Source of the DNA: Eledone cirrhosa
Taxonomy: Eukaryota
NCBI GenBank assembly: GCA_964016885.1
Contig: OZ024744.1
Location: 28,768,001-28,832,000, forward strand
DNA length: 64,000 nucleotides
Direction of reading: 5' to 3'
The translations under genes were made by a program, and so were the position numbers. Positions 10,652 to 64,000 of the stretch are shown here, in pieces. Position 1 is the first letter of the stretch; the number at the start of each line of letters is the position of its first letter. Below the pieces are notes generated by a model. That model was not told the origin of the DNA, ran no database searches, and saw only the letters and a program-made list of their open reading frames with translations.

Positions 10652-10684
<33 letters not shown>

Positions 10685-26597: not shown

Positions 26598-26636
<39 letters not shown>

Positions 26637-27095
26637 ATACACAAGCACAATAACAACAAACACATATAAACACACACTAGTAAACTAAGATAGAATATAT
26701 TAACCAATACAGTCACCCAAACAAGAACACACATCAAACAAAACACTATACACACACGCAAACGCATGCGTAGAGAAGACAAAAAAATAAACAAATAAAT
26801 AAATAAATAAACAAACTAAATAAAGATGGCGTAAGCATACAATGCAACGGGAGGAAACATAATAGCAACACTGACGAAAGAACTTTGATAGACTATATAT
26901 ATGTGTTTGTGTCTATATTGTATCTGTATTTTTGACCGTTGGTCAGTCAATGGCAACATTGAGGACCGAATAAATTAAATTAACCGATATAAAAGACACA
27001 GAAGCGAAAACCAACCAAACAGTGAGTGTGTTCTGTTATTAATTCTGGCAATATTATTACACAAATATGAAACCCCCCCCCCCCCAGTATAACAA
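24350..27095 (+). mobile_element. Decayed Penelope-like element (RT, GIY-YIG, pLTR)
   Basis: PTDKSGR, PPTRPVC, GSMDVVSLYPSI, YTQNEGAAIG, YSRHVDEI (YVDD-like), LPVLDT, CIIC..CKTRNVVYSIRC..YIGETARSIGERIDQH; multiple stops and frameshifts. Confidence 0.85.
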
Positions 27096-27254
27096 TATTT
27101 GTTTCGACACACGATTTCATATCAAAAACCTCGCAAAACTAATTCATCGCCGTTATATATATATGTATATAATTATATATATATGTGTGTATGTGTGTGT
27201 ATGTATATATATACATGTGTGTGTGTGAGTATATATATATGTATGTATATATAT

Positions 27255-27341
<87 letters not shown>

Positions 27342-27355
27342 GTAGGGAGTTAACC

Positions 27356-28638
27356 TTAATATTATTAAGAACAATATACGTAATCTCTTTAACCAACATA
27401 ACCTAAAAATTGAATTTAATTACAGCATCAAACTAGCTAATTTCTTGTATGTATCTCTTAATCTTGACACTGGCCTATATTACACTTACCATAAAAACAA
27501 TGAGAACCTAAATTATGTTAATTTTAAATCTAACCACCCTACCAATATTACGAATGCCATAGTTAGTAATATTGGAAAAAGAATATCTAACCTATCTTCT
27601 AATAAAAACATCTTTGATGCTAACGCCAATTACTATAATAACGCTCTTTCTAAAGCCGGCTATCCTGATAAAATCAAATGTAATAAAGAAACAAATTCTA
27701 GAAGAACTTACAGTAGAATAATTAATCATGATCATTCCAATAACTTTAATAAAAGACCTAGATACAAAAACATAATCTGGTATAATGCTCCTTTCTCCAT
27801 CTCTATTAATAATAATATTCCTAAATTATTCTTTAGTGCCTTAAATAAATGCTTCCCTCCCTCACATATCTATAGTAAAATATTTAATAAACACACTATA
27901 ACATTTTCCTATTCGACATCCTCCAACATTTCCAACATTATCTCTAAACACAACAATAAAATACTAAATACTAAATCTCTTCCTTCCAACACTGAATATC
28001 ATAATAATAGTAATAGTGCTCCCGACGTCATTGTTAACTCTAGGCTAATTTCTGCAAACCCAAATACAACGTCAAACACAACTTCGCTAAATGTTCTTAA
28101 TCCCATTCTAAATCAAGAAACTATTATTCCTATCGCAAATAACTTCTCCAATCCAATTCCTTCTATAGATAACACTAGGTCACTCGTTAATAATCTCTCT
28201 AATCGCAATTGCAATTGCCCTGCTAAAAATAAATGTCCTCTCAACAACGATTGTCTTGATAAAAACTTAATTTACGAATGTAAAGTTATAACTGACACCA
28301 ATTCCTTCACCTATTTTGGCTCCACTTCCACCTCATTTAAAGCTCGTCTTTATAATCATCATTCGTCTTTTAAATATAAACTTAAAAGAAACAACACGGC
28401 TCTCTCAGAACTCATATGGTCATTGAAAGACAAAAATATTAAATATAACATCTCTTGGAAAAAGGTTTCCTCTGCTTCTCCATACTTGAACAGTTCTCTG
28501 TCCAAGACTTGCAATCTCTGTCTAAATGAAAAATTTACCATTATATCTAATTTAGATTCTATAATAAATAGACGCACTGATTTGTTTTCTATCTGCTTGC
28601 ATAAATTCCACAGAACTTTCCATAAAGTATACAACTAA
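27356..28638 (+). CDS. PLE RT thumb plus GIY-YIG endonuclease, 5'-truncated and uninterrupted
   Basis: [43 protein letters not shown]-x5-C-x5-[41 protein letters not shown]. Confidence 0.85.
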
Positions 28639-38234: not shown

Positions 38235-40193
38235 AGGTTTTACAAATGGCATTGGTATATATAGATACAACGTAGAATCAAAACAATAACATCAATAATA
38301 AAAGATAACAATAAAGAAGTAAAGAAGTTAGAGTGAAGATGTAAAATAAGTTAAAAAATAATAAGTACAGAATACGATTCCTGATAATAGTGCTGGTGGT
38401 GGTGGTGGTGGTGGTGGTGGTGGTGGTGGTGGTGGTGGTAGTGGTGGTGGTGGTGCGTAAGTGTATGTGTAAAGACGTGGTGAGGGTAGACTTAATACTA
38501 ACATGAAACGAAACATTGGATACATACATACATATTTTTAACGAACACGCAAGCTACTATAAGATAGCTTTACATAAGGCAGGCCATAAGGAGGGGCTCA
38601 AATACATACCAGATAGAGACAGCAAGAACAAACCTAATGACAGCTACACTATCCACACCTATAGAAATAAAAAACATAGAACTAAACATAGAAATAGACA
38701 ACGAGCACCAGAAATAACTGAACCGAATACCAATATAGAGACACCTAGGAACTATAGAAAATTCAGAGGTAGGAAATACTTATGGTTCAATCCAATATTC
38801 AACTCTTCTATAAAAACCAAACTACCTTCTACATTCTTTAAGCTAATTGACAAACACTTCCCTAAACTGCACAAATACCATAGAATATTTAACAGAAATA
38901 CTATCAAACTCTCTTACTCTACTGCAGCCAACATAGAATCACACAAACATAAAATCAACTATAAAAGAATCTATATGGAAAATAACCTACCAACATACAC
39001 CATAGCACCAAATACAAAACGCAAACACAAAACAACATCACAACCACACACACGCCAGGGCGCATCACAACAAAATATCAATAAGCCCAAATCTCAGCCC
39101 ATCCATAACAACATACAACACCGTAACGGAGAACCTGCACACAGGAAGACCTCCAACTGTAACTGCCACCTGCCGGTTAAGTGCCCACTACAAAATAGAT
39201 GCCTGGAATCAAGTATACTGTTCCTGTGTACTATCAATTCGGGTAACTTAGCATGGCACTACATAGGTTCTACGGCTGGTGAATTAAAAAAAAAGATGGT
39301 TCGTCCACAGACACTCTATGAAGAACAGTAGACTAGAGAACTCAACAACGCTGGCCAATAAAATCTGGCAGCTTAAGGACACCAACCAGGAATATGGGAA
39401 TAGCTGGTCGAAATTATCGGGAACAAGGGCCTACAATAATGGAATGCCCCACTGTGGACTTTGCAATATGGAGCTGTTCCATATTTTAAAGTATGATAAA
39501 ATGCTGCTTAACAGCAAAATAGAACGATCAATTTTCTGTAGGCACAAAGCAGCTACCAAGTTCGCAAATTTCAAACCAACATGATTCGATCAAGCAATCT
39601 CGGAATTCAAACAGAACCACCCGGATTTTAATGTACTGACTACATACCACCCCACTGTTATTAGCTGTCAACTGACCAACTGGTCACTAAATCAACATCA
39701 TAAATCTCCTAACCTTTCTTTCACTCTCTCTCCATAAAGCTACATCACCCCCATTGAGATAAGACAATCAGCTTGCCAGACATTTACAATACATATCATC
39801 ACATTGCCACCCCCACTCTCTGTCTCCTGTCCTGAATCTATTCCCCACTCACTTAATTTTTAATTTATCTTTTATCTGTCTTCTGTTACTATTTTTTATT
39901 TTCTACTCTAAACCTCTGAGATTTGACCACTACGTATGTATGTATGTATCCAATGTTTCGTTTCATGTTAGTATTATCTCTACCCTCACCACGTCTTTAC
40001 ACATACACTTACGCACCACCACCACCACCACCACCACCACCACTATTATCAGCAATTGTATTCTGTACTTATATTTTTTACTTATTTTACATCTTCACTC
40101 TAACTTCTTTACTTCTTTATTGTTATCTTTTATTATTGATGTTATTGTTTTGATTCTACGTTGTATCTATATATACCAATGCCATATGTAAAA

Positions 40194-43719: not shown

Positions 43720-43770
<51 letters not shown>
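43581..43770 (+). mobile_element. Extreme 3' stub of an R4/Dong-like element with (TAA)n tail
   Basis: TLQKSCLLETTRTLLCVLNI* (compare the QKxxLLGTARILR terminus of R4/Dong ORFs), a short UTR, and (TAA)n at 43722-43770. Confidence 0.65.
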
Positions 43771-43771
<1 letters not shown>

Positions 43772-44013
43772 TTTTCTTTATTAACCACAAGGGTTCACAT
43801 AAAGTAGACATTAAGGACAGTACAGGACAATACAGGACGGTACAAATGGGCATTTCTGCGTGTAAAAAAACAGAGGTTGAAATAAAATAACAAAGAAAAA
43901 TTCCCCAATAGGGGGGAGACTTCCAAGGGACATTTGTGGAGAAAGCCCATTAAAAGACCACAGTGGCCCTGACCACCAGGGCAAGTGCCCTCTCCCAGTT
44001 TTCCACCTTTAAT

Positions 44014-47000
44014 TTACAGACACATACTCAGAGAAGGCCCATTCATTCGGGCCATACTTGCTTCTCTCACCCATCTTTCAACAAAATGCTGGGAAGAGAG
44101 CACTTCCCTCTCTACCCTGATTTTCCTTTTCAAATGAAATTTGAAAAAGTTAATCAGGGCATCACCGAAGAGGTAAGTGCTCGTCTTCAGCCCTTTCAAA
44201 CGTGTCCACCATACTATCTCTTTCACCATGGCTACCAGACATAAAAACTGCCTGCCCTTCCAGGCTAAAGGAAGGGGGCGGGGCAATCCTCACGATGGAC
44301 TCAGCTGATAGCTGGATAGGTCCTACACGTGACAGCAGGTGTTCGACATAAACCCACAAGTCAGCAATGCTCGGACACTGGACGAGTGCGTGCAGGACGG
44401 TTTCGTCGCCCTGCGCGCATCTCGGACATGCCCGGCTGACGGCACCTCCATGCCTGTAGAGTTTATCCCGAACTGGCAAAGCTCCTCGGTAGCACTGCCA
44501 GGCCAGGGATTTCTGGAACTTGTCCATAGGCCCCGGCCCGAAAGTCCTTCCGAAGAGATTGGCTAGTTGATTTTCGTCGACGCCTAGAGTTTCTCCAAGT
44601 ACGTCGTCGCTCTTCCCCTCCACTAATCCCCTATAGAACGCCAAGGTGGAGTTTCCACCGATCACATTGCCCGATTGGTCGAGGGCTGTGAGCGCCTGAA
44701 GACATTCCAGTCTCCAAGCGCTCCCTCTCGGTCTTCGCTTGACCCAGGACTGCAGCTCCGTCAAGGAGACGAGCTGGGGAAAAACATGTCTTGCAAACGA
44801 CGACCACACCTGATCACCGTGGAGGTAGAGGTGGAGATGTCGTAGCCTGAGCGCGTGTCTGCGCATCATCAGCCACGGCATGCCCAGCCCTCCACGTAGC
44901 GGGTGTTGACAGCAGATGGACCGCCTGACCATCGGAGCGCGTCCCTTCCACAAGAAGCGAAAGAGCAAACGCTCCAGCGCAGTCAGGCGGGGCTTAGGAC
45001 AAGGTACGACGGTCAGGCGGTAGTAGATGACGGATGCGATGTACGCATTCGCCACCTCCGCTCGACCTTTCAGGGATAGCTTCCTCTCGGCCCATTTCTG
45101 GGTGAGAGAAGCCACCCTGCTCGTCACCTCGTCCCAGTTTTTGTCCGTCTGGAGGTCTGGACCGAACCAGACCCCTAGCAATTTAACCGGTCCGTCCGTC
45201 CAGCGCCCGACGACGCTGTTGGACGGCATGGACCTGCCTCTCCAGGTGCCGAGCTGCAGGCCCACTGACTTTTCCTGGTTGATCATTGCTCCTGTCACCG
45301 CTTCGTATTCTCTTAGTGTAGTGCCGATCGCCTCGATGTGTTTGGCGTTCGACACCACTACGGTGACATCGTCGGCATATGCTGACACGGATCTTCCGCA
45401 TCCTAGTTCGCGCGGGAGCCCCCTCAACGTCTCCAGTTTGTGCAGTAATGGCTCGAGAGTCAATACGTACAATAGGGACGAGAGGGGACATCCTTGGCGG
45501 ACCGAGCGCATGATGTTGAACGGTTCCGAAAGGTGACCGTTCACTATCACTACAGAGCAGATGTCGCTGTGCATGGCAGCGATCCAGCCTCTGAAGACGG
45601 GCCCAAAGCCAGCCGCCCTCAGGACTGCCGTTAGGTAACGATGGTCGACCCTATCGAAGGCTTTCGACTGATCTAAATTGATCAAAGACCCACCTGTGCC
45701 AGGTTCCCTAGCTACCCTCTCTACGATGTATCGCATGAGGTGGAGGTTGTCGTGGATGGATCTGTCGAGAATGGCGCATGTCTGTGCCTCTCCCACCAGA
45801 CCACCAACGACAAGCGCCAACCTCTTTGCTAGCACCTTGGCCAAAATCTTGAACTCTGTGTTTAGCAGAGTTATGGGCCTAAAATTATCTATGTTATCCC
45901 CCTTGTTCGGATCCTTTCTCAGCAGCGCCACCGCTCCTCGGCTCACAGAGCTGGGAATTCTCCCGTTCTGTTGCCAGTTGCAGTAGACGTCCGCCAAGAG
46001 GCCTCCGAACAAGTTTGGCATTTGTACGTAAAGTTCATAGGGCAGACCATCCAAACCAGGCGATTTACCCCTTGTGCAACTAGTCATTGCATCCCGTACT
46101 TCAGCGGTTGTTATCGGCTTTTCGCAACACTCCGCCTCAGTGGCCGAAAGCCGCGGCAGTCCGTCGAGGTAGACACTAAAGTCCATCCCTCTACCCGGCC
46201 CGCCACTGCCCCCGAACAGTTGAGCGAAGTGTCGCTGAAAAGCTTCACACATTTGCCCGGGATCGAGTAGCATGCGCCCGTCGTGGTCCACCAAAGACCG
46301 GATCGTGGCTTTGTTGCCACGACGCGCCTCCGCCACTCGGGCCCATTGAACGGCTTTCGTCCCCTCGTGTCTGAGAGCGCGCACCCTATTCTGACAACGC
46401 AGCCTTCGTGCTTTGCATTGAAGAATTGTTCAAGGGCCAATTTCGCCGCAAGTACGTCGGTCGCGATGCCTTTGCTAAGCGCCTCATCTAATTTTCTAAC
46501 TAGTTCTCCCTCTGCTCTATTTTTCTCTATTGCTAAAGTCTTACTAAACCTAATGGACTCTATTCTAATTGCTCTTTTCAGAGCAAACCACCACTTGTTG
46601 TTGACGATGGCCCCCGTCAACGCCCGCTTAACTAGTTCGCTAATCCGGTCTCTGTAGGCCTTGCGCGCTGGTAAGGACGCGTTTAACTTCCAGTAGCCGG
46701 GTCCTCGTCTATGAAGCCTATCTAAGTCAAGCACACAGATCACGAATTTGTGGTCCGTGTAGCTGACTATCTTGAATTGTGGACAGCCTATGCTAGACCT
46801 ATCTATTTCCCTACAAAATACTCTATCTAGATATGATCTGGATGACCCTATGCGATTTGTCCAATTCCACATTGGTACATTCGGGAAATCCATTCGGTAC
46901 CTGTCAGACAGTTCAAAACGTCTGAGCAGGTTGGTGAGACTCTTGCACCCTCCTTCCCTATCCACTAATCCCACACAATCCCAGCGTGCATCTAAGATCC

Positions 47001-47430
47001 CGTTCCAGTCGCCCACTAACACTAAAGAGCGGGACGTTCCAAGAAAGGTCTCCAGACGCCGGAAGAAATCAGGCCGCCCTGCTCCTGTCGGGGCATAGAC
47101 GGCCACTAACCTGAAAGCTAGCCCGTCTCCGCTGGTGACGTCCAGCACCACCAACTTACCTTCTGGGTCCAGGAAGATGGCCCGTATGGGAAGATCCAAA
47201 CCTCTCCGAAAAAGCACAGCAACTCCTCCCCCCGATCCCGGACGGCTGGGAGATGCGTACACATCGTAGCCGCCGAAGATCGGTGCGAAAGCCTGTGCTT
47301 CGGAGATTCTGGTCTCGCTGATGGCCACTACATCTATGTTTAGTGACCTGAGGTCGTTGAGCAGGTGGCCCTGCTTCCATGAAGACCCCAAGCCACGCGC
47401 ATTTATGCTGCCTATTCTGAGTGAGGTCAT
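44014..47430 (-). CDS. ORF2: APE endonuclease, reverse transcriptase and C-terminal zinc finger (frameshifts near 46388 and 44240)
   Basis: SINARGL, AISET, VGDWN, SYLDRVF, TDHK; GPGYWKLN; SPGLDGLP, FRPITLLN, LDQSKAFDRVDH, VRQGCPLS, YADD; CPRC..ETVLHALVQC. Confidence 0.92.
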
Positions 47431-47464
47431 GTTGAAAAGGAGTGGAAAAGATGGGAAAGACCAC

Positions 47465-49454
47465 TTACCTTACTTCTCGTAGGGGAAGGACGGCTTTTCC
47501 ATCCTTTTCACTGCTTGTGGCCTCCTCAGGAAGGATGTCCTTATAAATCCTCCTGGAGAGTGCTTGTCGGAAGTCTCCGATGTCTTTGGGGAATTTTTGT
47601 TTTAGTGTCATGTACGTTTTCTGTGTGATGCGAGTGATTTGTATGTGTGGAGGTGGTGTGAATTTTGGGGTTGTTGTGTAGTCTTTTTCTGTGATGCTGG
47701 TGTTGTGTTGGATGTAGTGTAATAATTGCTTGTTCAAATTTAATGCTGTGTAGTGTGTATCGTTTTGGTTGTTTTGTTTTGTTTGCGTTTGTTGTGGGTT
47801 TGTTTCTGTTTCGCATTTTGGTGACTTTTGTGGTGTAGGTGATTGTGGTGCTGGGGATAATGATGGTGATGGTGTTGGTGTTTGGGTTGATGGGGTTGGT
47901 GATGCTGGTGTGGATGGTGGCATATTTGTCCTAACTTTTTTGTTTCTTAGTTTATTTGTTTCCCTCTGTATTTTGTTTTTGGAGGGGGAAGGAAGAGAAT
48001 TTTTTCTTTTTTGGTTTCTTTTTTTTTCCGGATATCGTTTCCCACTCCTCGTCGTCACAATCTGTCTCCAGTTGTGATAGGCCGGGGAGTGGAAAATCCT
48101 CCACAGCCGTTAGTTTTGGTTGTGGTGTGGTGGATGGTGTAGGCGCTGGTGCTAGTTCTGAAGCGTTGGGTGGTGTTGGTGTTGGTTTTGCTGGTGGTGG
48201 TAGTGGTGTTGGTTTTGCTACTGTTGCTGGGGTTGTTGCTGTTATAGTTGCTTCTGTTGTTGCTGCTACAGTTGTTGCTGCTATCTCTGCTACTGGTGGT
48301 GTTGATGGTTGTGTCACTGGGGTGGGTAGGAGAGGTGGCCTCAACCTTTTAGCCTGAGGGCAGAAAGCCCTTAGGTGCGTTCCTTCACCACAAACGACAC
48401 ACCTAGGTCTTCTGCCCTCGACAATTACCGTGAGGTGGCTGCCGTCAGTGAGGTCTATTACCTCTGGGATCTCCTCAATGCTTTTTTGGTCCGCTTGGAT
48501 CAGGAGCTCCATCCCAGATCCGGACCAGTTTTCCTGCTTTTCTTTTGCTACTGCTATTATTTTCGTGTTGGCTTCGATGCCGGCGAGGACAGCCGCTATT
48601 AGCCAGGGAATTTCGATGGCCGGTGGAACGTGGGTCACCCTGATCTTTACGAGTCTCTGGCCACAATAGCTTGGGACGAGTGTGAAGTCGTCACTTCTTA
48701 ATGGGGCCATGGAGTGTTCTCTAGCCTCCTCTGGTGTTTCAAAGAACACATCCACGGTTCCATACTTTTGCCCACGTCTGATGTGGGTTTTTCTTGCCCA
48801 CACATGTCCCAAAGCTTTTTGGATTTGGGACTCCGATGCCCGTTCCACTCGGCGCGATTTTACATTTATTGTTCTATACGACACGGTGCACAGGCGCCGA
48901 TGCTCCATTTTATTAGGTGGGGGGGGGGGGGTGAGGCTGACCCTGTACCCATCTTTCTTTACCATTTGTTTGGCATTTTCTAAATCTTCTTGAGTTACCG
49001 TGAACGCTTCGAATTGTTTTGCTACGATGGCGAAACTGAGGGTTGGTTTTATAATGTCATTGTTGTTGTTGTTGCTATCGTTAATATTAATTTTATTTTC
49101 AGTTGTGGTGGTGGTGACGTCTGTCGTCTTTGGTGGGGAAGAGTCCATTTTGCTTGATTTCATTTCGACGTCACGAGTTAATTTATTTTTTTCTTCTTTT
49201 GTTTCTGTTGTCGCGGTGGTGGTGGTGGTGGTGGTTGTCGCGGTGGTGGTGGTGGTGGTGGAGGGTTTAACACCTGCAGTCATTGGTAATGGCGGGAAAT
49301 GAATGTCTGCCTGAGACAAATTTAAAATATTGCTACTGCTTATATTTTTTTTTGTGTTGGCAAACGTAGTAACATTTACAATGGTGGTGTCGGTGTGAGG
49401 TGTTATTTTGTGAGGAAGGCTTTCAGCTGCTTCGTGCAGAGGGGAATTAGCCAT
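47465..49454 (-). CDS. ORF1: gag-like nucleic-acid-binding protein with a single CCHC knuckle (frameshift in an A-run near 48025)
   Basis: CVVCGEGTHLRAFC (CX2CX4HX4C) and Pro/Thr-rich linkers; the C-terminal part is contiguous in copy 2. Confidence 0.85.
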
Positions 49455-49690
49455 TTTTTTTCAAAGAAATTTTTGGATAATAATAAAAGTTAAAATTTTG
49501 GGCACAAGGCCCCAATCTTTTTGGGTGTCCTTTTCGGAAAACAATGTATGTGTGCTTATAAACAGTTTACAATAAAATTTTCCATAAATGGCAATTTTTA
49601 AACAAACGGAAATAACAAACCTTTGCGGAGCTCACGATAATACGATTTCCTACGTAGGTCGCCAATAATAATAATAATAATAATAATAAT

Positions 49691-52600
49691 TTCTTTATTA
49701 ACCACAAGGGTTTACATAAAGTAGACATTAAGGACAGTACAGGACAATACAGGGCGGTACAAATGGGCATTTCTGCGTGTAAAAAAACAGAGGATGTAAT
49801 AAAAATATCAACGACAAATTCCCCAATAGGGGGGAGACTTCCGAGGGACATTTGTGGAGAAAGCCCATTAAAAGGCCACAGTCACCCTGACCACCAGGCC
49901 AATTGTCCTCTTCCAGTTTTCCACCTTTAATTTACAGACACATACTCAGAATAGGCCCATTCACTCGGGCCATACCTGCTTCTCTCACCCATCTTTCAAC
50001 AAAATGCTGGGAAGAGAGCACTTCCCTCTCTACCCTGATTTTCCTTTTCAAATAAAATTTGAAAAAGTTAATCAGGGCATCACCGAAGAGGTAAGTGCTC
50101 GTCTTCAGCCCTTTCAAACGTGTCCACCATACTATCTCTTTCGCCATGGCCTCCAGACAGATAAAAACTGTGCCCTTCCCGGCTAAAGGAAGAGGGCGGG
50201 GCAATCCTCACATTGGACTCAGCTGATAGCCGGATCCGTCCTACACGTGACAGCAGGTGTTCGACATAAACCCACAAGTCAGCAATGCTCGGACACTGGA
50301 CGAGTGCGTGCAGGACGGTTTCGTCGCACTTCCCGCATCTCGGACATGCCCGGCTGACGGCACCTCCATGCCTGTAGAGTTTATCCCGAACTGGCAAAGC
50401 TACCCGGTAGCTCTGCCAGGCCAGGTATTTCTGGAAGTTGTCCATAGGCCCAGGCCCGAAAGTCCTTCCGAAGAGATTGGCTAGTTGATTTTCGTCGACG
50501 CCTAGAGTTTCCCCAAGTACGTCGTCGCTCTTCCCCGCCACTAATCCTCTATAGAACGCCGAGGTGGAGTTTCCACCTATCACATTGCCCGATTGGTCGA
50601 GGCCTGTGAGCGCCTGAAGACATTTCAGTCTCCAAGCGCTCCTTCTCGGTCTTCGCTTGACCCAGGACTGCAGCTCCGTCAAGGAGACAAGCTGGAGAAA
50701 GACGTGTCTAGCAAACGGCGACCACACCTGATCACCGTCGAGGAAGAGGTGGAGATGTCGTAGCCTGAGCGCGTGTCTGCGCATCATCAGCCACGGCATG
50801 CCCAGCCCTCCACGTAGCGGGTGTTGACAGCAGATGGACCGCCTGACCATCGGAGCGCGTCCCTTCCACAAAAATCGAAAGAGCAAACGCTCCAGCGCAG
50901 TCAGGCGGGGCTTAGGACAAGGTACAACGGTCAGGCGGTAGCAGATGACGGATGCGATGTACGCGTTAGCCACCTCCGCTCGACCTTTCAGGGATAGCTT
51001 CCTCTCCGCCCATTTCTGGGTGAGAGAAGCCACCCTGCTCGTCACCTCGTCCCAGTTTTTGTCCGTCTGGAGGTCCGGACCGAACCAGACCCCTAGCAAT
51101 TTAACCGGTCCGTCTGTCCAGCGCCCGACGGCGCTGTTGGACGGCATGGACCTGCCTCTCCAGGTGCCGAGCTGCAGGCCCACTGACTTTTCCTGGTTGA
51201 TCATTGCTCCTGTCACCGTTTCGTATTCTCTTAGTGTAGTGCCGATCGCCTCGATGTGTTTGGCGTTCGACACCACTACGGTGACATCGTCAGCATATGC
51301 TGACACGGATCTTCCGCATCCTAGTTCGCGCGGGACCCCCCTCAACGTCTCCAGTTTGTGCAGTAATCGCTCCAGAGTCAATACTTACAGGAGGGACGAG
51401 AGGGGACATCCTTGGCGGACCGAGCGCATGATGCTGAACAGGTCCGAAAGGTGACCATTCACTGTCACCACAGAGCAGATGTCGCTGTGCATGGCAGCGA
51501 TCCAGCCTCTGAAGACGGGCCCAAAGCCAGCCGCCTTCAGGTCTGCCGCTAGGTAACGATGGTCGACCCTATCGAAAGCTTTCGACTGATCTAAATTGAT
51601 CAAGGACCCACCCGTGCCAGGCTCCCTAGCTACCCTCTCTACGATGTATCGCATGAGGTGGAGGTTGTCGTGGATGGATCTGTCGGGAATAGCGTCTCTC
51701 CCACCAGACCACCAACGACAAGCGCCAACCTTTTTGCTAGCACCTTGGCCAAAATCTTGAACTCTGTGTTTAGCAGAGTTATGGGCCTAAAATTATCTAT
51801 GTTATCCCCCTTGTTCGGATCCTTTCTCAGCAGCGCCACAGCTCCTCGGCTCACAGAGCTGGGAATTCTCCCGTTCTGTTGCCATTTGCAGTAGACATCC
51901 GCCAAGAGGCCTCCGAACAAGTCTGGCATCTGTACGTAAAGTTCATAGGGCAGACCATCCAAACCAGGCGATTTACCCCTTGTACAGCTAGTCATTGCCT
52001 CCCGTACTTCAGCGGCTGTTGTCAGCTGTTCGTAACACTCCTCCTCAGTGGCCGAGAGCCGCGGCAGTCCGTCGAGGTAGACACTAAAGTCCATCCCTCG
52101 ATCGGGCCCGCCGCTGCCCCCGAACAACTGAAAGAAGTATTGCTGAAAAGCTTCACACATTTTCCCGGGATCGAGTAGCATGCGCCCGTCGTGGTCCACC
52201 AAAGACCGGATCGTGGCTTTGTTGCCACGACGCGCCTCCGCCACTTGGGCCCATTGAACGGCTTTCGTCCCCTCGTGTCTGAGAGCACGCACCCTAGCTC
52301 TGACAACGCAGCCTTCGTGCTTTGCATTGAAGAATTGATCAAGGGCCAATTTCGCCGCAAGTACGTCGGTCGCGATGCCTTTGCTCAGCGCCTCGTCTAA
52401 TTTTCTAACTAATTCTCCCACTGCTCTATTTTTCTCTGTTGCTAAAGCCTTACTAAACCTAATGGACTCTATTCTAATTGCTCTTTTCAGAGCAAACCAC
52501 CACTTGTTGGCGATGGCCCCCGTCAACGCCCGCTTAACTAGTTCACTAATCCGGTCTCTGTAGGCCTTGCGCGCTGGTAAGGACGCGTTTAGCTTCCAGT

Positions 52601-54760
52601 AGCTGGGTCCTCGTCTATGAAGCCTATCTAAGTCAAGCACACAGATCACGAATTTGTGGTCCGTCTATACTAGACCTATCTATTTCCCTACAAAATACTC
52701 TATCTAGATATGATCTGGATGACCCTATGCGATTTGTCCAAGTCCTCATTGGCACATTCGGGAAATCCAATCGGTAGCTGTCAGACAGTTCAAAACGCCT
52801 GAGCAGGTTGGTGAGGCTCTTGCACCCTCCTCCCCTATCCGCTAATCCCACACAGTCCCAGCGTGCATCTAAGATCCCGTTCCAGTCGCCCACTAACTCT
52901 AAAGAGCCTGATGTTCCAAGAAAGGTCTCCAGACGCCGGAAGAAATCGGGCCGCCCTGCTCCTGTCGGGGTATAGACGGCCACTAGCCTGAAAGCTTGCG
53001 TCGCCGCTGGTCCCGTCGAGCACCACCAACTTACCTTCTGAGTCCAGGAAGATGGCCCGTATGGCGAGATCCAAACCTCTCCGAAAAAGCACAGCAACTC
53101 CTCCCCCCGATCCCGGACGGCTGGGAGATGCATACACATCGTAGCCGCCGAAGATCGGTGCGAAGGCCAGTGTTTCGGAGAATCTGGTCTCGCTGATGGC
53201 CACTACATCTATGTTTAGTGACCTGAGGTCGTTGAGCAGGTGGCCCTGCTTCCATGACGACCCCAAGCCACGCTCATTTATGCTGCCTATTCTGAGTGAG
53301 GTCATGTTGAAATGGAGTGGAAAAGATGGGAAAGACCAATTACCTTACTTCTCGTAGAGGAAGGATGGTTTGTCCATCCTTTTCACTGCTTGTGGTCTCC
53401 TCCGGAAGGATGTCCTTATAAATACTCCTGGAGAATGTTTGTCGGATGTCTTTGGGGAATTTTTGTTTTAGTGTCATGTACGTTTTCTGTGTGATGCGAG
53501 TGATTTGTATGTGTGGAGGTGGTGTGAACTTTTGGGTTGTTGTGTAGTCTTTTTCTGTGATGCTGGTGTTGTGTTGGATGTAGTGTAATAATTGGTTGTT
53601 GTTCAAATTTAATGCTGTGTAGTGTGTTGTTTTGGTTGTTTTGTTTTGTTTGCGTTTGTTGTGGTTTGTTTCTGTTACGCTTTTTGGTGACTTTTGTGGT
53701 GTTGGTGATGGTGGTGTTGGGGTTAATGATGGTGATGGTGTTGGTGTTTGTGGTGATGGGGTTGGTAATGCTGGTGTGGATGGTGGCATATCTGTCCTAA
53801 CTTTTTTGTTTGATAATTTATTTGTTTCCCTCTGTATTTTGTTTTTGGAGGAGGAAGGAAGAGAATTTTTTCTTTTTTGGTTTCTTTTTTTCTTTTTTCC
53901 TGATACCGTTTCCCACTCCTCGTCGTCACAATCTGTCTCCAGTTGCGATAGGCCGGGGAGTGGAAAATCCTCCACAGGCGTTGGTTTTGGTTGTGGCGTG
54001 GTGGATGGTGTAGGCGCTGGTGCTAGTTCTGGCGCGTTGGGTGGTGGTGGTGTTGGTTTGGCTACTGTTGCTGGGGTTGTTGCTGTTATAGTTGCTTCTG
54101 TTGTTGCTGCTACAGTTGTTGCTGCCATTTCTGCTGCTGGTGGTGTTGATGGTTGAATCACTGGGGTGGGTAAGAGAGGTGGCCTCAACCTTTTAGCCTG
54201 AGGGCAGAAAGCCCTTAGGTGGGTTCCTTCACCACAAACGACACACCTAGGCCTTCTGCCCTCGACGATTACGGTGAGGTGGCTGCCTTCAGTGATGTCT
54301 ATTACCTCTGGGATCTCCTCAATGCTTTTATGGTCCGCTTGGATCAGGAGCTCCATCCCAGATCCGGACCAGTTCTCCTGCTTTTCTTTCGCTATTTCGA
54401 TTAGCTTGGTGTTGGCCTCGATGCCCGCGAGGACGGCAGCCATTAGCCAGGGATTTTCGATGGCCGGTGGAACGTGGGTCACGCTGATCTTCACAAGTCT
54501 CTGGCCACAATAGCTTGGGACGAGTGTGAAGTCGTCACTTCTTAATGGGGCCATGGAGTGTTCTCTGGCCTCCTGTGATGTTTCAAAGAACACGTCCACG
54601 GTTCCATATTTCTGCCCACGTCTGATGTGTGTTTTTTTTGCCCACACATGTCCCAAAGCTTTTTGGATTTGAGACTCGGATGCCCGTTCCACTCGGCGCG
54701 ATTTTATGTTAATTGTCCGATAAGACACAGTGCATAGGCGACGATGCTCCATTTTATTAG

Positions 54761-54791
<31 letters not shown>

Positions 54792-55506
54792 GGGGCTGAC
54801 CCTGTATCCATCTTTCTTTACTATTTTTTGGCCTCTTCTAATTCCTCCTGAGTTACCTGGATCGCTTCGCACGTTTTTGCTACTCTGGCAAAACTGAGGG
54901 TAGTTTTCTTAATTTCATTGTTGCTATTGTTGTTATCGTTATTTTTGTTATTGTTAATTTTAGTTTCAGTTGTGGTGGTGGTGGCGTCACTGGTGTTCGG
55001 TGTGGAAGAGTTCATTTTGGTTAAATTCATTTCGATATCACGAGTTAATTTATTTTTTTCTTTTGTATCTGTTGTCGCTGTGGTGCTGGGGGTGTTGTCG
55101 CTGTGGTGGTGGTGGCGGCTTTAACACCTGCAGTCTTTGGTAATGGCGGGAAATGAATGTCTGGCTGAGACAAATTAAAAATATTGCTACTGCTTATATT
55201 TTTAGTGTTGGCAAACGTAGTAATATTTACAATGTTGGTGTCGGTGTGAGGTGTTAGTTTGTGAGGAAGGTGTAACTCTGTGCCGGCCATGATTTTTCAA
55301 AGACATTTTTTTGGTTTGATAATTATAAAAAGTTTAAATTTTGGGCCCAAGGCACCAATATTTTTGAGTGTCCTTTTCAAAAATCAATGTATGTGCACTT
55401 ATATACAGTTAACAATAAAATTTCTCCATAAATGGCAATTTTAAACAACTGAAAATAACAAACCTTTGCGGAGCTCACGTTGATACGATTTACTACGTAG
55501 CTCGCC
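49691..55506 (-). mobile_element. Full-length Tx1-like element, subfamily A copy 2 (ORF1 about 55290-53340, ORF2 about 53305-49932, several frameshifts)
   Basis: Colinear with copy 1; same 5' junction TTATT|GGCGA; (AAT)n at 49664-49690 and 55507-55560. Confidence 0.92.
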
Positions 55507-55557
<51 letters not shown>

Positions 55558-55560
<3 letters not shown>

Positions 55561-55704
55561 GGCATGCTTGCTGGGAACAGCAAGAACCCTCCGATACGTC
55601 CTAAATATCTGAGGCTGCAGGTAGTGGCTTGATATTCATTTCAACAAACTTTCCAGTTAACTAACATCAATGACTGAGACTCAAAGAACAATAATAATAA
55701 TAAT
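55558..55704 (+). mobile_element. Second R4/Dong-like 3' stub, flanked by (TAA)n on both sides
   Basis: KACLLGTARTLRYVLNI*; colinear with 43592-43721. Confidence 0.7.
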
Positions 55705-56360
55705 GATTTCTTTATTAACCACAAGGGTTTACACAAGGTAGACATTAAGGACAATGCAGGACAATACAGGACGGTACAAATGGGCATTTCTGCGTGTAAA
55801 AAACAAAAACAGAGGTTGTAACAAAAAATAACAATGAAAAATTTCCCAATAGGGGGGGGAGACTTCGGAGGGACATTTGTGGAGAAAGCCCATTAAAAGG
55901 CCACAGTGACCCTGACCACAAAGGCAAGTGCCCTCTCCCAGTTTTCCACCTTTAATTTACAGACACATACTCAGAGTAGGCCCATTCACTCGGGCGATTC
56001 TTGCTTCTCTCACCCATCTTTCAACAAAATGCTGGGAAGAGAGCACTTCCCTCTCTACTCTGATTTTCCTTTTCAAATGAAATTTGAAAAAGTCAATCAG
56101 GGCGTCACCGAAGAGGTAAGTGCTCGTCTTCAGCCCTTTCAAACGTGTCCACCATACTATCTCTTTCGCCATGGCCACCAGACAGATAAAAACTGCCTGC
56201 CCTTCCCGGCTAAAGAAAGAGGGCGGGGCAATCCTCACGATGGACTAAGCTGATATCTGGATCCGTTCTACACGCGACAGCAGGTGTTCGACATAAACCC
56301 ACAAGTCAGCAATTCTCGGACACTGGACGAGTGCGTGCAGGACGGTTTTGTCGCCCTGCA
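55705..56360 (-). mobile_element. 5'-truncated Tx1-like subfamily A copy 3
   Basis: 3' UTR plus ORF2 C-terminus; the truncated end abuts (TAA)n at 56361-56376. Confidence 0.9.
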
Positions 56361-56371
56361 TAATAATAATA

Positions 56372-56472
56372 ATAATTGATTCTACTTCAGGCACAAGGCC
56401 AGCAATTACCCAGTTCATTACTGGTACTTTATTGTATCGACCCCGTAAGGATGAAAGGCAAAGTCAACCTCG
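56372..56472 (-). mobile_element. SINE 3' half inside the Tx1 array
   Basis: TTCTACTTCAGGCACAAGGCCAGCAATT...GGCAAAGTCAACCTCG. Confidence 0.8.
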
Positions 56473-56477
56473 AATGC

Positions 56478-59396
56478 TTTCTTTATTAACCACAAGGGTT
56501 TACATAAAGTAGACATTATGGACAGTACAGGACAATACAGGACGGTACAAATGGGTATTTCTGCGTGTAGAAAACAAAAACAGAGGATGTAACAAAAAAA
56601 AACAATGAAAAATTCCACAAACGGGGGAGACTTCCGAGGGACATTCGTGGAGAAAACCCATTAAAAAGCCACAGTGACCCTGACCACCAGGGCAAGTGCC
56701 CTCTCTCAGTTTTCCACCTTTAATTTACAGACACATACACAGAGTAGGCCCATTCACCTCTCTTTCCCATCTTTCAACAAAATGCTGGGAAGAGAGCACT
56801 TCCCTCTCTACCCTGATTTTCCTTTACAAATGAAATTTGAAAAAGTCAATCAGAGCATCACCGAAGAGGTAAGTGCTCGTTTTCAGCCCTTTCAAACGTG
56901 TCCACCATACTATATCTTTCGCCATGGCCACCAGACATATAAAAACTTCCTGCCCTTCCCGGCTACAGCCGGGCAAGCCCGTGTTTTGCGTTGAAGGATT
57001 GGTCGAGTACCAATCTCGCCGCAAGCACGTCGGTTGCGATATCTGTTCTAAACGCCTCTTCTAGCTTTCTGAATAGCTCTCCCTCTACTCTATTTTCCTC
57101 TATCACAAATCCTTTGCTAAACCTCATCGACTCTACTTTAATTGCCCTTTTAAGGGCGAACCACCACCTGTTGTTGACGACCGCTCCCGTCAACGCCCGC
57201 TTAACTAATACGCTAATCCGGTCTCTGTAGGCTTTGCGACGCGTTCAGCTTCCAGTAACCGGGTCCTTGTCTATGAAATCTGTCTATATCGGTCTCACAG
57301 ATCATAGATTTACGGTCTGTGTAGGCGACTATTTTAAATTGTGGACAACTTATCTGGTTCTCTGCAGAATACCCTATCGAGATACGATCTGGATGACCCG
57401 ATGCGGTTTGTCCATGTCCACATTGGCACATTCGGGTGAACCAGTCGATCGTATCAGACAGTTCAAAACGTCTGAGCAGGTTGGTGAGGCTCTTGCACCC
57501 TCCTCCTCTATCCACTAGCCCCACACAAGCCCAGCGTGCATCCAAGATACCGTTCCAGTCGCCCACTAACACTAAAGAGCGGGACGTTCCAAGAAAGGTC
57601 TCTAGACGTCTGAAGAAATCTAGCCGTCCTGTACCTGTCGGTCCTGTCCCTACTAGCCTGAAAGCGTTGCCTTCGGTGCCTCTTACGTCCAGCACCATCG
57701 ACTTACCTTCTGGGTCCAGGAAGATGGTCCGTATGGCGAGACCCAAGTCTTTCCGAAACAACATAGCCCCCCCCCCCTCCCGAACGTTTCGGAGATGCGT
57801 ACACCTCGTAACCGTCGAAGGTCGGTGCGAAAGCTTGCGTTTCGGAGATTCTCGTCTCGCTGAGGGCCACCACATCTATGTTTAGTGACCTGAGGTCGTT
57901 AAGCAAGTGACCCTGCTTCCAAACCGACCTCAAGCCACGCCCGTTTACACTTCCGATCCTGAATACGGCCTTGTTGGGTGAGAAACGGGGCTAGTGAGAA
58001 AGGATCACTTACCTTGATCGTATGGTGAAGGGACAGTAGAACCGTCCCTTTTGCTAGTCATGGGTGTTTCCAAGAGGATGTCAGTGTATATCCTCTTAGC
58101 AACCGAGCCTCTGAAGTCTCCAACTACGTTGGGGAATTTTTGTTTTAGAAGTTTGTACTGTTCTATTTTGATATCAATTAAGCTTATGTTTGTCAGTAGA
58201 GTTCTTGGAGTTGGTGGGGTGTAGTAGTTTTTTTCTGTGATGTCTGTGTGCTGCTTTATATATTGTATGAGTTCTTTTTTTTACCATGTTTATGGCTGTG
58301 TACTTTTAGGGGGAGGGTGATTTTGTTGTTGTTGGGTGTGTGTGTTTTATTGTGTTTGCGTTGTTGGTGGTTTTGGTGATGCTGGTGGTGGCGTGGTTGT
58401 TGTTGGCGGTGGTGCTTGGGGTGGTGATGGTGTTGGTGGTGGCGTCGCTGCAAGTCTCCTTGCAGCCTTTACCCCTCTTTGTGTGCCTTCGGGTTTTTTC
58501 TTTTTTCATTTTTTTTTGCAGACCGTTTGCCACTTCACTCCTGCCTCAAACTCCATGTCGGATTCCGTGGCGTCTGGGAGGTGTTTGTGCTCCACGGCTA
58601 TTGGTGGTGGTAGTGGAGCCCTCTCCGGCGATTTTGTTGCTGTTGCAGCTACTGCAAATGTAGCTACTGGTGTTGCCGCCACTGCTGCCGCTGCTTTAGT
58701 TGTCCGTGGCCTTGGTACGGGTGCTACGGACGTTGCCCTTCTACTCACCGTGGAAGGGGCTTCTGCGTTGTTGCCTGCCCTGCTCTTGGTAGCAGCGGAC
58801 CAGGTATTGGAAGGAGAGGGGCCTTTTTCTTCGCTGTCTTCTGGGGGCAAAAGGCCCTGAGGTGACCCTTTGACCCACAGAGATAACAATTTGGCCGTCT
58901 TCCTTCCACGCTTATAGGGAATTGGAGTCCTTCCTCGAGGTCTATGATATCGGGGATAGTGTCGATACACTCCTGGTCAGTATAAGCATTTGCATGCCTA
59001 TACCTGACCAGTTCTCTCTCCCTATTTTCTCTACTTGCAGCATGGTCGCCCCGTCCTCGATTCCAGCAAGGACAGACGCGGCCAGCCAAGGTATGGGCAC
59101 GTTGAGTGGAACCTGGGTCACTTTGACTCCCTCTCTCTGTGATGTCTGACAGCACTCTCTCACTTTATTGTGTTATCCATATTGAAAGAAATCTTTTTTT
59201 CGAATAATGTTTTTACACAATACTCAACCCATAAAGTGGTGCCGTATTATTTACGAGTGAACCCCTGTGTTAGGTGGGTCACTTCTTCTAAACTTTTGTC
59301 AAGTTTAAAACTTGAATAAAAGGTTTAGAACAGTTGAAAATGAGGTAAACTGTTGAAAAAAAGCTGGAGGCGATAATAAGCGTGGCTTCACCTTCA
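56478..59396 (-). mobile_element. Composite Tx1-like unit: subfamily A 3' end (56478-56965) joined to subfamily B 5' UTR, ORF1 and endonuclease (56980-59396); RT deleted
   Basis: The 3' part matches copies 1-3; ORF1 (CYLCGSKGHLRAFC, LPDATESDMEFEAG) and the endonuclease match copy 5. Confidence 0.8.
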
Positions 59397-59470: not shown

Positions 59471-62400
59471 TTGATTTCTTTATTGGCCACAAGGGCTGAC
59501 ATCAAGAAAAACATCACAGACGGAACAGGACGGTACGATGTGGGTTTTGTGCGTGTAAATATTTTTATTATTTATATAAGAAAAGAAAAAAGACATAAAA
59601 CATATATATATATATAAACAATAAAATGAAAATTGAAACAATGAAAAATTCCCCAATAGGGGGGAAACCTCCGAGGGTTACTCGTGGCGAAAACCACACA
59701 AAAGACCACGGCCACCCTGACTACCAGGGCAAGCGCCCTCTCTCAATTTTTCCATCTCTCAAACTACAGACGTATATTCAGAGTGATCCCGTTCACTCGG
59801 ACCATTCTCGCTACATTCACCCACCTTTCAACAAACTTGCTAGAAGACAGCACTTGCCTCTCCACCCTGATTTTCCTCTTCAAGTGAAACTTGAAAAAGT
59901 TAATCAGGGATTCGCCGAAGAGGAAAGTGTTTGTCTTTAATCCTTTTAACCTTGTCAACCACACAATCTCTTTCGCCATGGCCACCAGGCAGATGAAAAC
60001 CGTCTGCCCTGCCTCCTCAAAGGAAGACGGCGAAACCATCTGCACAATGGACTCAGTCGACAACCGGATCAGTCCAACACGTGACAGCAACTGTTCGACA
60101 TAGCTCCACAATTCAGCAATGCTCGGGCACTGAACGAGTGCGGGCACAACGGTTTCGTCGCTATGCGCGCATCTCGGACAGGCTCGGCTGACAGCACTTC
60201 CGTGCCTGTAGAGCTTATCTCGAACCGGCAGCGCTCCCCGGTAGCACTGCCAGGCCAGGGATTTTTGGAAGTTATCCATAGGCCCCGGGCTGAAAGTTCT
60301 CCGGAAGAGAGCAAGTAGTTGATCTTCTTCGACGCCCAGGATCTCTCCGAGAACGTCGTCGCTCTTCCCCTCCACTAGTCCTCTATAGAACGCCGAGGTG
60401 GATGTTCCACCGATACTGGTGCCCAACTGGGAGAGGGCAGTGGGCGCCTGGAGACATTTCAGTTTCCAAGCGCTATCCCTCGGTCTTTTTCTGATCCAGG
60501 ACTGCAGCTCCGTCAAGGAGACGAGCTGTGGGAAAATGTGCCTGGCGAACGGCGACCTCACCTGTTCACCATCAAGGAAGCACCAGAGATGTCGCAGCCT
60601 CAGCGCATGTTTGCGCATCATCAGCCATGGCATGCCCAGTCCTCCACGCAACGAGTGTTGACAGCAGATGGATCGTCTGACCATGGGAGCGCGTCCCTTC
60701 CACAAAAAGCGGAAGAGGAGGCGCTCCATTTTGGTGAGAGTTGGGCTGGATCAAGCGACGACGGTGAGGCGGTAGCAGATGACGGACGCGATGTACGCAT
60801 TCGCCACTTACGCCCGGACTTTCAGGGACAGCTTCCTCTCAGCCCATTTCTGGGTGAGGGAGGCCACCCTGCTCGTCACCTCGTTCCAGTTTTTCTCCAT
60901 CTGGAGGTCGGGTCCGAACCAGACCCCGAGCAATTTAACCGGTCCGTCCGTCCAACGCCCCACGACGCAGTCGGACGGCATGGACTTGCCTCTCCAGGTC
61001 CCTACCTGCAAGCCCACCGACTATTCCTAGTTTATCCTTGCTCCTGTCACCGTTTCGTATTCCTTGAGAGCGGTGCCGAGCATCTGGATGTGCCTGGTGC
61101 TCGACACCACCACGGTAACGCCGTCAGCATAAGCCGACTCGGATTTCCCGCATCCTAGTTCGCGTGGGACGCCCCTCATTGCCCCCAGTTTGTGCAGTAA
61201 CGGCTCGAGAGCCAATACGTACAAGAGGGACGAGAGGGGACAACTCTGGCGGACTGAGCGCATGATGTTGAACGGCTGCGACAGGTGAGCGTTCACCCTC
61301 ACAACTGAGCAGATGTCGCTGTACATTGCTGCGATACAACGCCTGAAAACGGGCCCGAAACCGGCTGCCTCGAGGGCCGCCGCCAGGTACCGATGGTCGA
61401 ACCTATCGAATGCTTTGGATTGATCCAAGTTGAACAGGGCCCCACCCTTGCCAGGTTCCTTAACCACCCTCTCTATGATGTATCGCATGAGGTGGAGGTT
61501 GTCGTATATGGATCTGTCCGGGATGGCGTATGTCTGCGCCTCTCCCACCAGACCCTTGACGACAAGCGCCAACCTCGTTGCTAACACCTTGGCCAAAATC
61601 TTGAACTCTGCGTTTAGCAAGATTATGGGCCTGAAGTTATCGATAACATCCTCCTTGTTCGGGTCTTTTCTCAGCAGCACCACCGCTCCCCGGCTCACAA
61701 AACTGGGAATGCTCCCGTTATGCTGCCAGTTGCAGTAGACGTCTGCCAAGAGGTCACCGAACAAGTCTGGAATAAATGCATAAAGCTCGTAGGGCAGACC
61801 ATCTAAACCTGGCGATTTACCTCTTGTGCAGTTAGCCATCGCTTCCCGTATTTCACCGGCTGTTATTGGCTTTTCGCAACACTGTGCTGCGGTCGTCGAG
61901 AGCCGAGGCAGTCCGTCGAGGTAAGCACTGAAGTCCATGCCCCGATCCGGGCCGTCACCGCTCCTGAACAGTTCAGCAAAGTGCTGCTGAAAAGCTTCAC
62001 ACATCCGCTCGGGTTCGAGCATCACGTACCCGTTTTGGTCAGACAAAGACCGAATTGTGGCTTTATTGCCACGTCGCGCCTCTGCCACCCGGGCCCATTG
62101 GAGGGCTTTTGTCCCCTCGTGTTTCAGAGCACGCGCTCTAGCTCTGACAACGCAGCCTTCGCGTTTTGCGTTGAAGAATTGGTCGAGTGCCAATCTCGAC
62201 GCAAGCACGTCGGTTGCGATGCCTGTCCTAAACGCTTCTTCTAGCTTTCTGACTAGCTCTCCCTCTACTCTATTTTCCTCTATCACTACTCCTTTGCTAA
62301 ACTTAATCGACTCTACTTTAATTGCCCTTTTCAGGGCGAACCACCACCTGTTGTTGACGCCGCTCCTGTCAACGACCGCTTAACTAATACGCTAATCCGG

Positions 62401-64000
62401 TCTCTGTAGGCCTTGCGCGCCGGGAAAGACGCGTTCAGCTTCCAGTAACCAGGCCCTTGTCTATGAAGTCTGTTTATGTCGATCTCACAGATCACAAATT
62501 TGTGGTCTGTGTAGTCGACTATTTTAAATTGTGGACAACCTATACTAGCCTTATCTAGTTCCCTGCAGAATACCCTATCTAGATACGATCTGGATGACCC
62601 GATGCGGTTTGTCCATGTCCACATTGGCACATTCGGGTGATCCAGTCAATACCTGTCAGACAGTTCAAAACGTCTGAGCAGGTTGGTGAGGCTCTTGCAC
62701 CCTCCTCCCCTATCCACTAGCCCAACACGATCCCAGCGTGCATCCAAGATACCGTTCCAGTCGCCCACTAACACTAAAGAGCGGGACGTTCCAAGAAACG
62801 TCTCTACACGTCTGAAGAAATCTAGCCGTCCTGTACCTGGCCGTCCTGTCCCTGTTGGGGCGTAGATGGCTACTAGCCTGAAAGCATTGTCTTGGCTGCC
62901 GGTCACGTCCAGCACCACCGACTTACCTTCTGGGTCCAGGAAGATGGCCTGTATCGCGAGATCCAAACCTCTCCGAAAAAGGACGGCAACCCCTCTCCCC
63001 GATCCTGGACGGCTGGGAGATGCGTATACATCGTAGCCGCCGAAGATCGGTGCGAAGGCCCGTGCCTCGGAGATTCTGGTTTCACTGATGGCCACCACAG
63101 GTCATTAAGCAGGTGACCCTGCTTCCAAGATGACCCCAGGCCACGTGCATTTATACTGCCTATTCTGAGTACAGCCATGTTGGATGAGAAACGGGGCAAA
63201 TGAGAAAGGGTCACTTACCTTGTTCGTGTGGTGAAGGGACTTTAGAACCGTCCCTTTCGCTGGTCATGGGTCTTTCCAAGAGGATGTCAGTGTATATCCT
63301 CTTGGTAACCGTCCCTCTGAAGTCTCCAACTGCGTTGGGGAATTTTTGTTTTAAAGGTTTGTATTGTTCTATTGAGATTTCGATGATGCTTATGTTTGTC
63401 GGGAGAGTTCTTGGTGTTGGTGGGGTGTAGTAGTTTTTTTCCGTGATGTCTGTGTGCTGCTTTATATATTGTATGAGTTCTTTTTTTGCCATGTTCATGG
63501 CTGTGTACCTTTTTAGGGGAGGGGTGATTTTGTTGCCGTTTTCTTCTTGTTGCTGTTTGGTGTGTGTGTCTTGTTGTGTTTGCGTTGTTGGTGTTTGTGG
63601 TGGTGTTGCTACAAGTTTCCCTGCTGCCTTTACCCCTCTTTGTATGCCTTCGCTTTTGGAGGGTGAATCTAAGGTTTTTTTCTTTTTTGTTTTTTTGTGG
63701 CAGACTGTTTGCCACGTCACTCCCGCCTCAAACTCCATGTCGGATTCTGTGGCGTCTGGGAGGGGTATGTGCTCCACGGCTGTTGGTGGTGGTAGTGGAG
63801 CCTTCTTCGGCAATGTTGTTGATGGTGTAGCTATTTCAAATGTAGCTATTGGTGTTGCCGCTACTGATGATGCTGCTTTATTTATCCGTGGCCTTGGTAC
63901 GGGTGCTACGGACGTTGCCCTCCTACTCACCGTGGAAGGGGCTTCTTCGTTTGTTGCCTGTCCTGCTCTTGGTAGCAGCGGACCAGGTATTGGAAGGAGA
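59471..64000 (-). mobile_element. Tx1-like element subfamily B copy 5 (ORF2 about 63178-59764, frameshifted; ORF1 C-half 63211 to window end)
   Basis: APE, RT (YADG variant) and CPRC..C motifs; distinct ORF1 and 3' UTR; (TAA)n tail at 59421-59470. Confidence 0.9.

Follow-up and report, generated by a model that had tools for sequence, protein, structure and literature searches.

A 5' splice-site motif at the ORF1 stop codon is conserved across a LINE lineage of Eledone cirrhosa

The genomic window analyzed here (64,000 nucleotides of Eledone cirrhosa, positions 28768001-28832000 of contig OZ024744.1, in a genome of 3.0 Gb) ends in a head-to-tail array of long interspersed nuclear elements (LINEs) on the minus strand, made up of two near-full copies of a family that we call A, two truncated family A 3' ends and two units of B/C type. 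These elements have the features of L1/Tx1 group LINEs: an open reading frame 1 (ORF1), an ORF2 with an apurinic/apyrimidinic (AP) endonuclease, a reverse transcriptase (RT) and a C-terminal zinc domain (Pfam PF03372, PF00078 and PF13966), an AATAAA signal and a simple-repeat tail. The label Tx1 comes from an earlier, sequence-only reading of the window, and the protein homologues of the element, at 39-44% identity, bear no family names. That reading proposed that the element carries ORF2 as an intron, with a 5' splice site (donor) at the ORF1 stop and an acceptor in the 3' untranslated region (UTR), which would give an ORF1-only RNA. We report that a strong donor is conserved at the ORF1 stop across this LINE lineage, and we consider what it may be for.

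A strong donor is conserved at the ORF1 stop

In the window, AAG/GTAAGT (the slash marking the predicted splice position) is present at 47468, 58012 and 63218 and AAG/GTAATT at 53343, as the sequence-only reading had it. The units at 58012 and 63218 had been placed together in a subfamily B; this is right for 63218, which is family B, whereas the unit at 58012 differs, with a C-type ORF2 start whose ATG is lost. Outward from A, the sampled families were reached stepwise (B, C, D, F, G, G2/G3 and H), with an ORF2 identity of 63-88% and an identity at four-fold sites of 50-90% (seven families compared). In each of the eight families the ORF1 stop carries the donor AG/GTAAGT, except that D has CAG/GTAATT. 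At the level of individual copies, the exact AG/GTAAGT was found in 24 of the 30 copies located via a non-A ORF2 start, in 19/30 copies of family F, 15/20 of family G, 29/30 of G2/G3 and 25/27 of family H (3/30 H loci being without the locating motif), and the non-exact donors of B, F, G, G2 and H are mostly one-letter changes at scattered positions.

Among six family representatives, the donor is invariant at seven of its nine positions, versus 0/63 ungapped flanking columns, an invariance that is partly built in because the donor was located by five of its own letters. With the invariant four-fold sites of ORF2 as a baseline (41/168, 0.24), the chance of seven invariant positions would be 0.24^7, about 5e-5, or 0.24^4, about 0.004, with the three stop letters discounted (hand arithmetic). 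The invariant letters are those that we take to pair with U1. Moreover, the donor letters are read in two frames, ORF1 ending in Arg-TAA in A, D, F and H and in Gly-Lys-stop in B, C, G and G2; together with the ORF2 tree, ((A,D),(B,C),(G,(F,H))), this implies at least two changes of the ORF1 frame during which the letters were retained.

When sites are scored against the donor consensus, none but this one attains 8/9 or more in G2, F or H (about 6 kb scanned; 4.9 kb for G2). Second-order Markov simulation of copy 1, the family A element described in Table 1, gave one perfect donor in 47/1000 sequences and two in 0/1000; copy 1 has two, which exceeds chance. Beyond the lineage, a strong donor at the ORF1 stop was found in 0/27 distant LINEs with a visible ORF1, and none was seen near the ORF2 start in 44 distant L1/Tx1-like elements from metagenomes (44 of the 80 loci compared extended to the ORF2 start). 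As these distant LINEs lack a donor at the ORF1 stop, stop codons as such do not account for the motif. The donor is trailed by a pyrimidine tract and by the start context C-A-A/G-C-ATG, the distance from the donor G to the ORF2 ATG being 28-53 nucleotides (nt) over the families.

Acceptors and the search for spliced copies

Regarding the acceptor, the sites proposed by the sequence-only reading (TACACGCAG) are located at 43856, 49773, 55790 and 56561, and the copy 1 site is its best AG-free pyrimidine-rich site (15/20 pyrimidines). Joining it to the donor indeed removes 3613 nt (47468-43856+1) and extends ORF1 by 19 codons, in a frame that is open in 4/4 family A ends and closes 14 nt ahead of AATAAA (hand reading). 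This open frame is unremarkable, because the four ends are 88-95% identical and the chance of such a frame is about 0.4 (hand arithmetic). The acceptor AG is confined to A and its sister D (two D-type ends). The B end of the window reads TACACGCAC (59549-59557) without AG, a caveat already noted in the sequence-only reading that turns out to be a family trait and not damage to one copy: AG was found in 0/27 B-type ends (26 of 30 loci examined, being the best matches to the window's B end and so a biased sample). It is missing also from B/C-type ends reached via ORF2, and there is no AG between hairpin and AATAAA in 16/17 complete F ends and in the single G2 end examined. Family H ends have GAG only in 6/6, with TAG beside the signal in 4/6. 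Elsewhere in the U-rich 3' UTR a YAG occurs 11 nt before AATAAA in B/C, in 4/6 G ends and in 6/6 G3 ends, and these AGs of B/C, G, G3 and H are at unrelated positions. What the 3' ends have in common is the small hairpin, the U-rich tract and the motif leading into AATAAA.

An apparent acceptor in one F copy (L255) was rejected as a private change absent from 17 other F ends, and folding of the family A 3' UTR does not surpass that of shuffled sequences (z -0.3). In family D, three copies (L219, L220 and L222) have spacers in which a branch-like motif, pyrimidines and a TAG make up an acceptor-like run; it lies six nt ahead of the ORF2 ATG and, together with an upstream donor, could give an ORF2-only RNA. 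The abundant families B, F and G2 retain the donor in the absence of this AG. A designed ORF2 intron misfits the pattern; it is unlikely as a lineage feature, while family A transcripts may still be spliced to the 3' UTR AG to some extent. Conservation of both sites had been named beforehand as a check: it holds for the donor, in eight families and two frames, and fails for the acceptor.

Precisely spliced genomic copies were sought and none was found in about 2,700 A copies, 14 H places and 25 B places. The family A ORF1 end is followed by G, i.e., is unspliced, at 2647 places and by another letter at 54; 47 of these 54 were examined and none is spliced (in 45 the unspliced site carries a point change or a small deletion, and two are unrelated), and the seven others are not the predicted junction because their next letter is T. 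Exon 2 follows a letter other than C plus AG at 98 places, and no AAG case among the 22/22 examined lies after ORF1; 25 of the other 76 were also examined. A gapped junction pattern gave 17 matches in family A, 0 of them with a gap of 0. Two junction matches to a loose pattern were rejected as unrelated sequence, as were three B donor matches joined to foreign sequence, which is a 59-bp satellite. A 59-bp tandem satellite runs for kilobases at two loci (L377 and L378, G000:C28, 106.68 Mb and 112.51 Mb). Internal deletions were likewise rejected as splice products, with 0/41 junctions of GT..AG type and microhomology in most. The route to ORF1-only daughter elements suggested by the sequence-only reading is hence unsupported, although the missing copies are weak evidence, because an ORF2-less RNA needs RT in trans and would lose the 3' hairpin.

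Four copies (L098, L155, L156 and L158) have lost 3.2-3.4 kb of ORF2 and retained the ORF1 end and the 3' end, a build that resembles the half-L1 elements (HAL1) discussed below. Their deletions are imprecise, mostly with short microhomology and not GT..AG, and each occurs at a single place. Contigs of sequencing runs that may be DNA count neither way: no donor-acceptor joint was seen among 15 listed of 594 joints in contigs from four runs compared with copy 1, nor among the 7 joints listed for three runs compared with L155, whose sites are about 460 nt apart, and one 1412-nt contig runs through the L155 donor unspliced. Contigs lose rare transcript forms. A search with the ORF1 protein for annotated spliced C-termini gave no homologue.

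The second perfect donor of copy 1, overlooked by the sequence-only reading, lies 309 nt downstream of the first within the endonuclease and is present in 4/4 window units (47159, 53034, 57706 and 62926). No spliced genomic copy was found for it among the first 100 of 168 matches, and two odd matches were rejected as old decayed copies. A gene model of Octopus sinensis, XP_036360308.1 (tectonic-3-like), is the only named close match and contains a 61-residue piece of the lineage endonuclease, 66% identical, that stops at F-L-D-P-E, exactly the second donor, after which host sequence follows. This suggests that donors such as this one may join host exons.

Possible roles of the donor

As the donor is conserved without a fixed partner acceptor, we read it as a binding site for U1 small nuclear ribonucleoprotein (hereafter U1), which may prevent early cleavage and polyadenylation so that ORF2 gets transcribed, and not as the fixed end of an ORF2 intron; we lean towards this reading while placing it a little short of an even chance. 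U1 would bind the ORF1-end donor and block 3'-end formation at an AATAAA or ATTAAA in the A-rich end of ORF1 or at cryptic ORF2 sites, the pyrimidine tract downstream of the donor perhaps assisting. Without U1, early 3'-end formation would yield a short, ORF2-free RNA. Alternatively, the donor might be spliced to any downstream acceptor, be it within ORF2, at a host exon or, for A and D, the 3' UTR AG, which would again give an ORF2-free RNA. AATAAA or ATTAAA occurs within 500 nt upstream of the donor in 7/8 families; in B, C, G, G2 and F it is also present at +840 to +1160. For the whole lineage, we put forward, as a tentative idea below even chances, that a U1 site on the ORF1 stop acts as a host splicing and 3'-end switch between ORF1-only and full-length RNA, each family having its own acceptor or poly(A) site (the 3' UTR AG in A and D), so that the Copia strategy would have been reached independently in an element without long terminal repeats (LTRs).

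Several observations weigh against a U1 site. Past the donor, the scanned A and H copies have no AATAAA or ATTAAA until the element's last 300 nt, so that a downstream site needing protection is not obvious; the upstream hexamers may just reflect an A-rich strand. The alignment was one that found the donor by its own letters, the match to the ORF1 stop being verified afterwards, and CAG/GTAATT is exact in just 4/8 D-type copies. The count of frame changes is soft, because the families are related, each is represented by a single copy and recombination may affect ORF1 ends. Furthermore, XP_036360308.1 is one predicted gene model that bears on the second donor and not on the ORF1-end donor.

Other readings of the motif were weighed. 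An ORF2 intron designed as a switch, the donor being spliced to the 3' UTR AG to make an ORF1-only RNA with 19 further codons, appears improbable to us: its donor and acceptor motifs are real, the acceptor being the best site of its kind in copy 1, D shares the AG of A, several further families hold some YAG elsewhere in the 3' UTR, and the missing spliced copies weigh little if an ORF2-less RNA without the 3' hairpin need not retropose, but the AG is absent from all the B-type ends examined, 16/17 F ends and one G2 end, H has GAG or TAG only, the alternative CAG of B gives a frame without a stop before the tail (hand reading), and no spliced junction stands against 2647 unspliced A places. 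A nearer acceptor at the ORF2 start, whose use would delete the ORF1 stop and the spacer together with the ORF2 ATG, is also unlikely. The candidates for such a short intron, of the type known from the Arabidopsis element EVD (PMC5580714), are 47417 and ORF2 codon 138. In A, a 52-nt intron (47417-47468) would fuse ORF1 and ORF2 in frame, as would a similar one in D (hand reading), and 47417 is within the eight best acceptor-like sites of copy 1, while the codon-138 site, a YAG with 11-12/15 pyrimidines in six families, would give an ORF1-plus-tail RNA. The frames disagree among families, however, the first AG being out of frame in B, C, F and G; the spacer does not fix a frame, the H intron would be only 42 nt, 19 YAG are shared along ORF2 and are mostly explained by codons, and neither intron is missing from any genomic copy examined.

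The overlap of the motif with the ORF1 stop in all families, followed by the pyrimidine tract and the ATG context, would also fit a translation signal for ORF2 re-initiation that merely resembles a donor, and in family H ORF1 and ORF2 share a frame and are separated by one TAA. We see this as doubtful, given that the nine letters stay while the stop shifts frame, that the invariant letters are presumably the U1-pairing ones and that the D variant has the same core. Equally, we ascribe little probability to a functionless motif, with ancestral letters retained by chance, by codon constraint at the C-terminus or by repeated recombination where ORF1 meets ORF2. Divergence among the families at four-fold sites is only moderate, and some copies are chimeric, combining a C-type ORF1 with an A-type end; on the other side, conservation does not reach the flanking columns, the amino acids encoded vary and these elements seldom contain a perfect donor.

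Element anatomy, related systems and significance

The features of the array are given in Table 1.

Table 1. Positions of the LINE features in the window
Feature	Position	Strand	Remarks
Copy 1, family A full-length LINE (5' UTR, ORF1, spacer, ORF2, 3' UTR)	43772..49663	-	both ORFs frameshifted here
Copy 1 ORF1, ending Arg-stop	47465..49454	-	TAA at 47467-47465; frameshift near 47955-48110
ORF1-end 5' splice-site motif AAG/GTAAGT	47463..47471	-	G+1 at 47468; kept in eight families
Remainder of the ORF1-ORF2 spacer, pyrimidine-rich	47431..47462	-	donor G to ATG, 38 nt
ORF2 (AP endonuclease, reverse transcriptase, zf-RVT)	44014..47430	-	frameshifted in copy 1
Second perfect donor motif, within the endonuclease (D-P-E-G-K)	47154..47162	-	present in A-D, absent from G, G2, F and H
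Small C-run/G-run hairpin, 3' UTR	43902..43916	-	related motif in 3' ends of the other families examined
U-rich tract closing on the proposed acceptor CAG (43858-43856)	43856..43900	-	tract common to families, AG in A and D only
Poly(A) signal AATAAA	43777..43782	-	
(ATT)n tail	43722..43770	-	neighbouring copies join head to tail inside such tails
Copy 2, family A	49691..55533	-	donor AAG/GTAATT at 53343; acceptor-like AG at 49773
Two family A 3' ends, 5'-truncated	55684..56968	-	AG at 55790 and 56561
Donor of the internally deleted B/C-type unit	58007..58015	-	ORF1 end Gly-Lys-TGA, other frame
Donor of the family B unit	63213..63221	-	ORF1 end Gly-Lys-TGA
Family B 3' end	59496..59557	-	CAC replaces CAG at the proposed acceptor; other CAG 11 nt before AATAAA

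ORF2 is open in another family A copy (L351, 1139 aa). Arrays within (ATT)n or (TATC)n, with the units head to tail, were seen for several families, the tails being (TATC)n in H and F and (ATT)n in A, B, C, D and G. Families G2 and H are young, many of the 150 best matches having an open ORF2 frame of 1150 aa; a young, intact H copy (L342:1646-6886) has an ORF1 of 593 aa and an ORF2 of 1145 aa, and G2 forms head-to-tail arrays at G000:C1:423365119-423418069 (L497), with a 5.84-kb period, at least eight units and many open ORF2 frames. Donor-like motifs also occur 30-60 nt from the 5' end in H (L342, about 1450-1540), G2 (L497, 5' UTR) and A (window, about 49610-49640, minus strand), followed in H by an acceptor-like AG about 70 nt beyond; a promoter-proximal U1 site or a 5' UTR intron is possible there. 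Three copies (L054, L155 and L156) are chimeric, an A-type ORF1 end and ORF2 being attached to a C-type ORF1 at a junction about 40 nt before the donor. The window also contains, at 8633-11328, 12088-13037, 25859-28635 and 38507-39328, a 2.7-kb (CAC)n array, a 483-bp tandem duplication and open frames resembling pieces of other retroelements.

Several known elements offer comparisons. In Arabidopsis EVD and the shGAG RNAs of plant Ty1/Copia elements, the structural ORF likewise ends in a 5' splice site; in EVD this site is required for the short spliced RNA, and its authors proposed, from splice-site mutants, that it represses premature termination through U1 binding, favouring full-length RNA, in an element whose structural protein exceeds the catalytic one (PMC5580714). 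EVD differs, however, in being an LTR element: it has a single polyprotein, its short intron has been demonstrated and a coupled terminator is present, whereas the present element is a two-ORF LINE whose donor use is putative and which has no family-wide acceptor. The spliced gag RNA of Drosophila copia, with an intron of about 3 kb, has the geometry proposed by the sequence-only reading, a donor after the structural ORF and a long intron over the enzyme ORF, but copia is an LTR element with a fixed, used acceptor, while here the acceptor is family-limited and putative (PMC5580714). Closer in structure, human L1 is a two-ORF LINE with functional internal splice and poly(A) sites (SpIREs, PMC5860796; SpORF2, PMC2896524). 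The L1 SpIREs arise by splicing within the 5' UTR or between 5' UTR and ORF1, keep ORF2, number 140 genomic copies and were termed dead ends; here, by contrast, the donor is on the ORF1 stop, it is kept across families and no spliced copy was found (PMC5860796). HAL1 elements are ORF1-only LINE derivatives, and the few copies that lost nearly all of ORF2 are like them, except that their deletions are imprecise and occur at one place each (PMC5753468). Finally, microsatellite-targeting Tx1 elements are known from fish, and the Tx1 elements Kibi and Koshi share with the present lineage an AP endonuclease-RT ORF2, a weak CCHC knuckle in ORF1, simple-repeat ends and arrays inside repeats, the repeats being different here, (ATT)n and (TATC)n (PMC4494074).

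In our literature search, with most subscription papers outside its scope, no report of a conserved donor at a LINE ORF1 stop was found. LINEs require far more ORF1 protein than ORF2 protein, and the known solution is inefficient translation of ORF2 from one RNA. While the splice sites of human L1 have been described as harmful to the element, a donor that survives changes of frame points instead to control through RNA processing. With more than 20,000 endonuclease candidates in the genome, the lineage would scatter thousands of strong donors capable of joining element sequence to host exons, and the nine-letter donor offers a target for a simple test.

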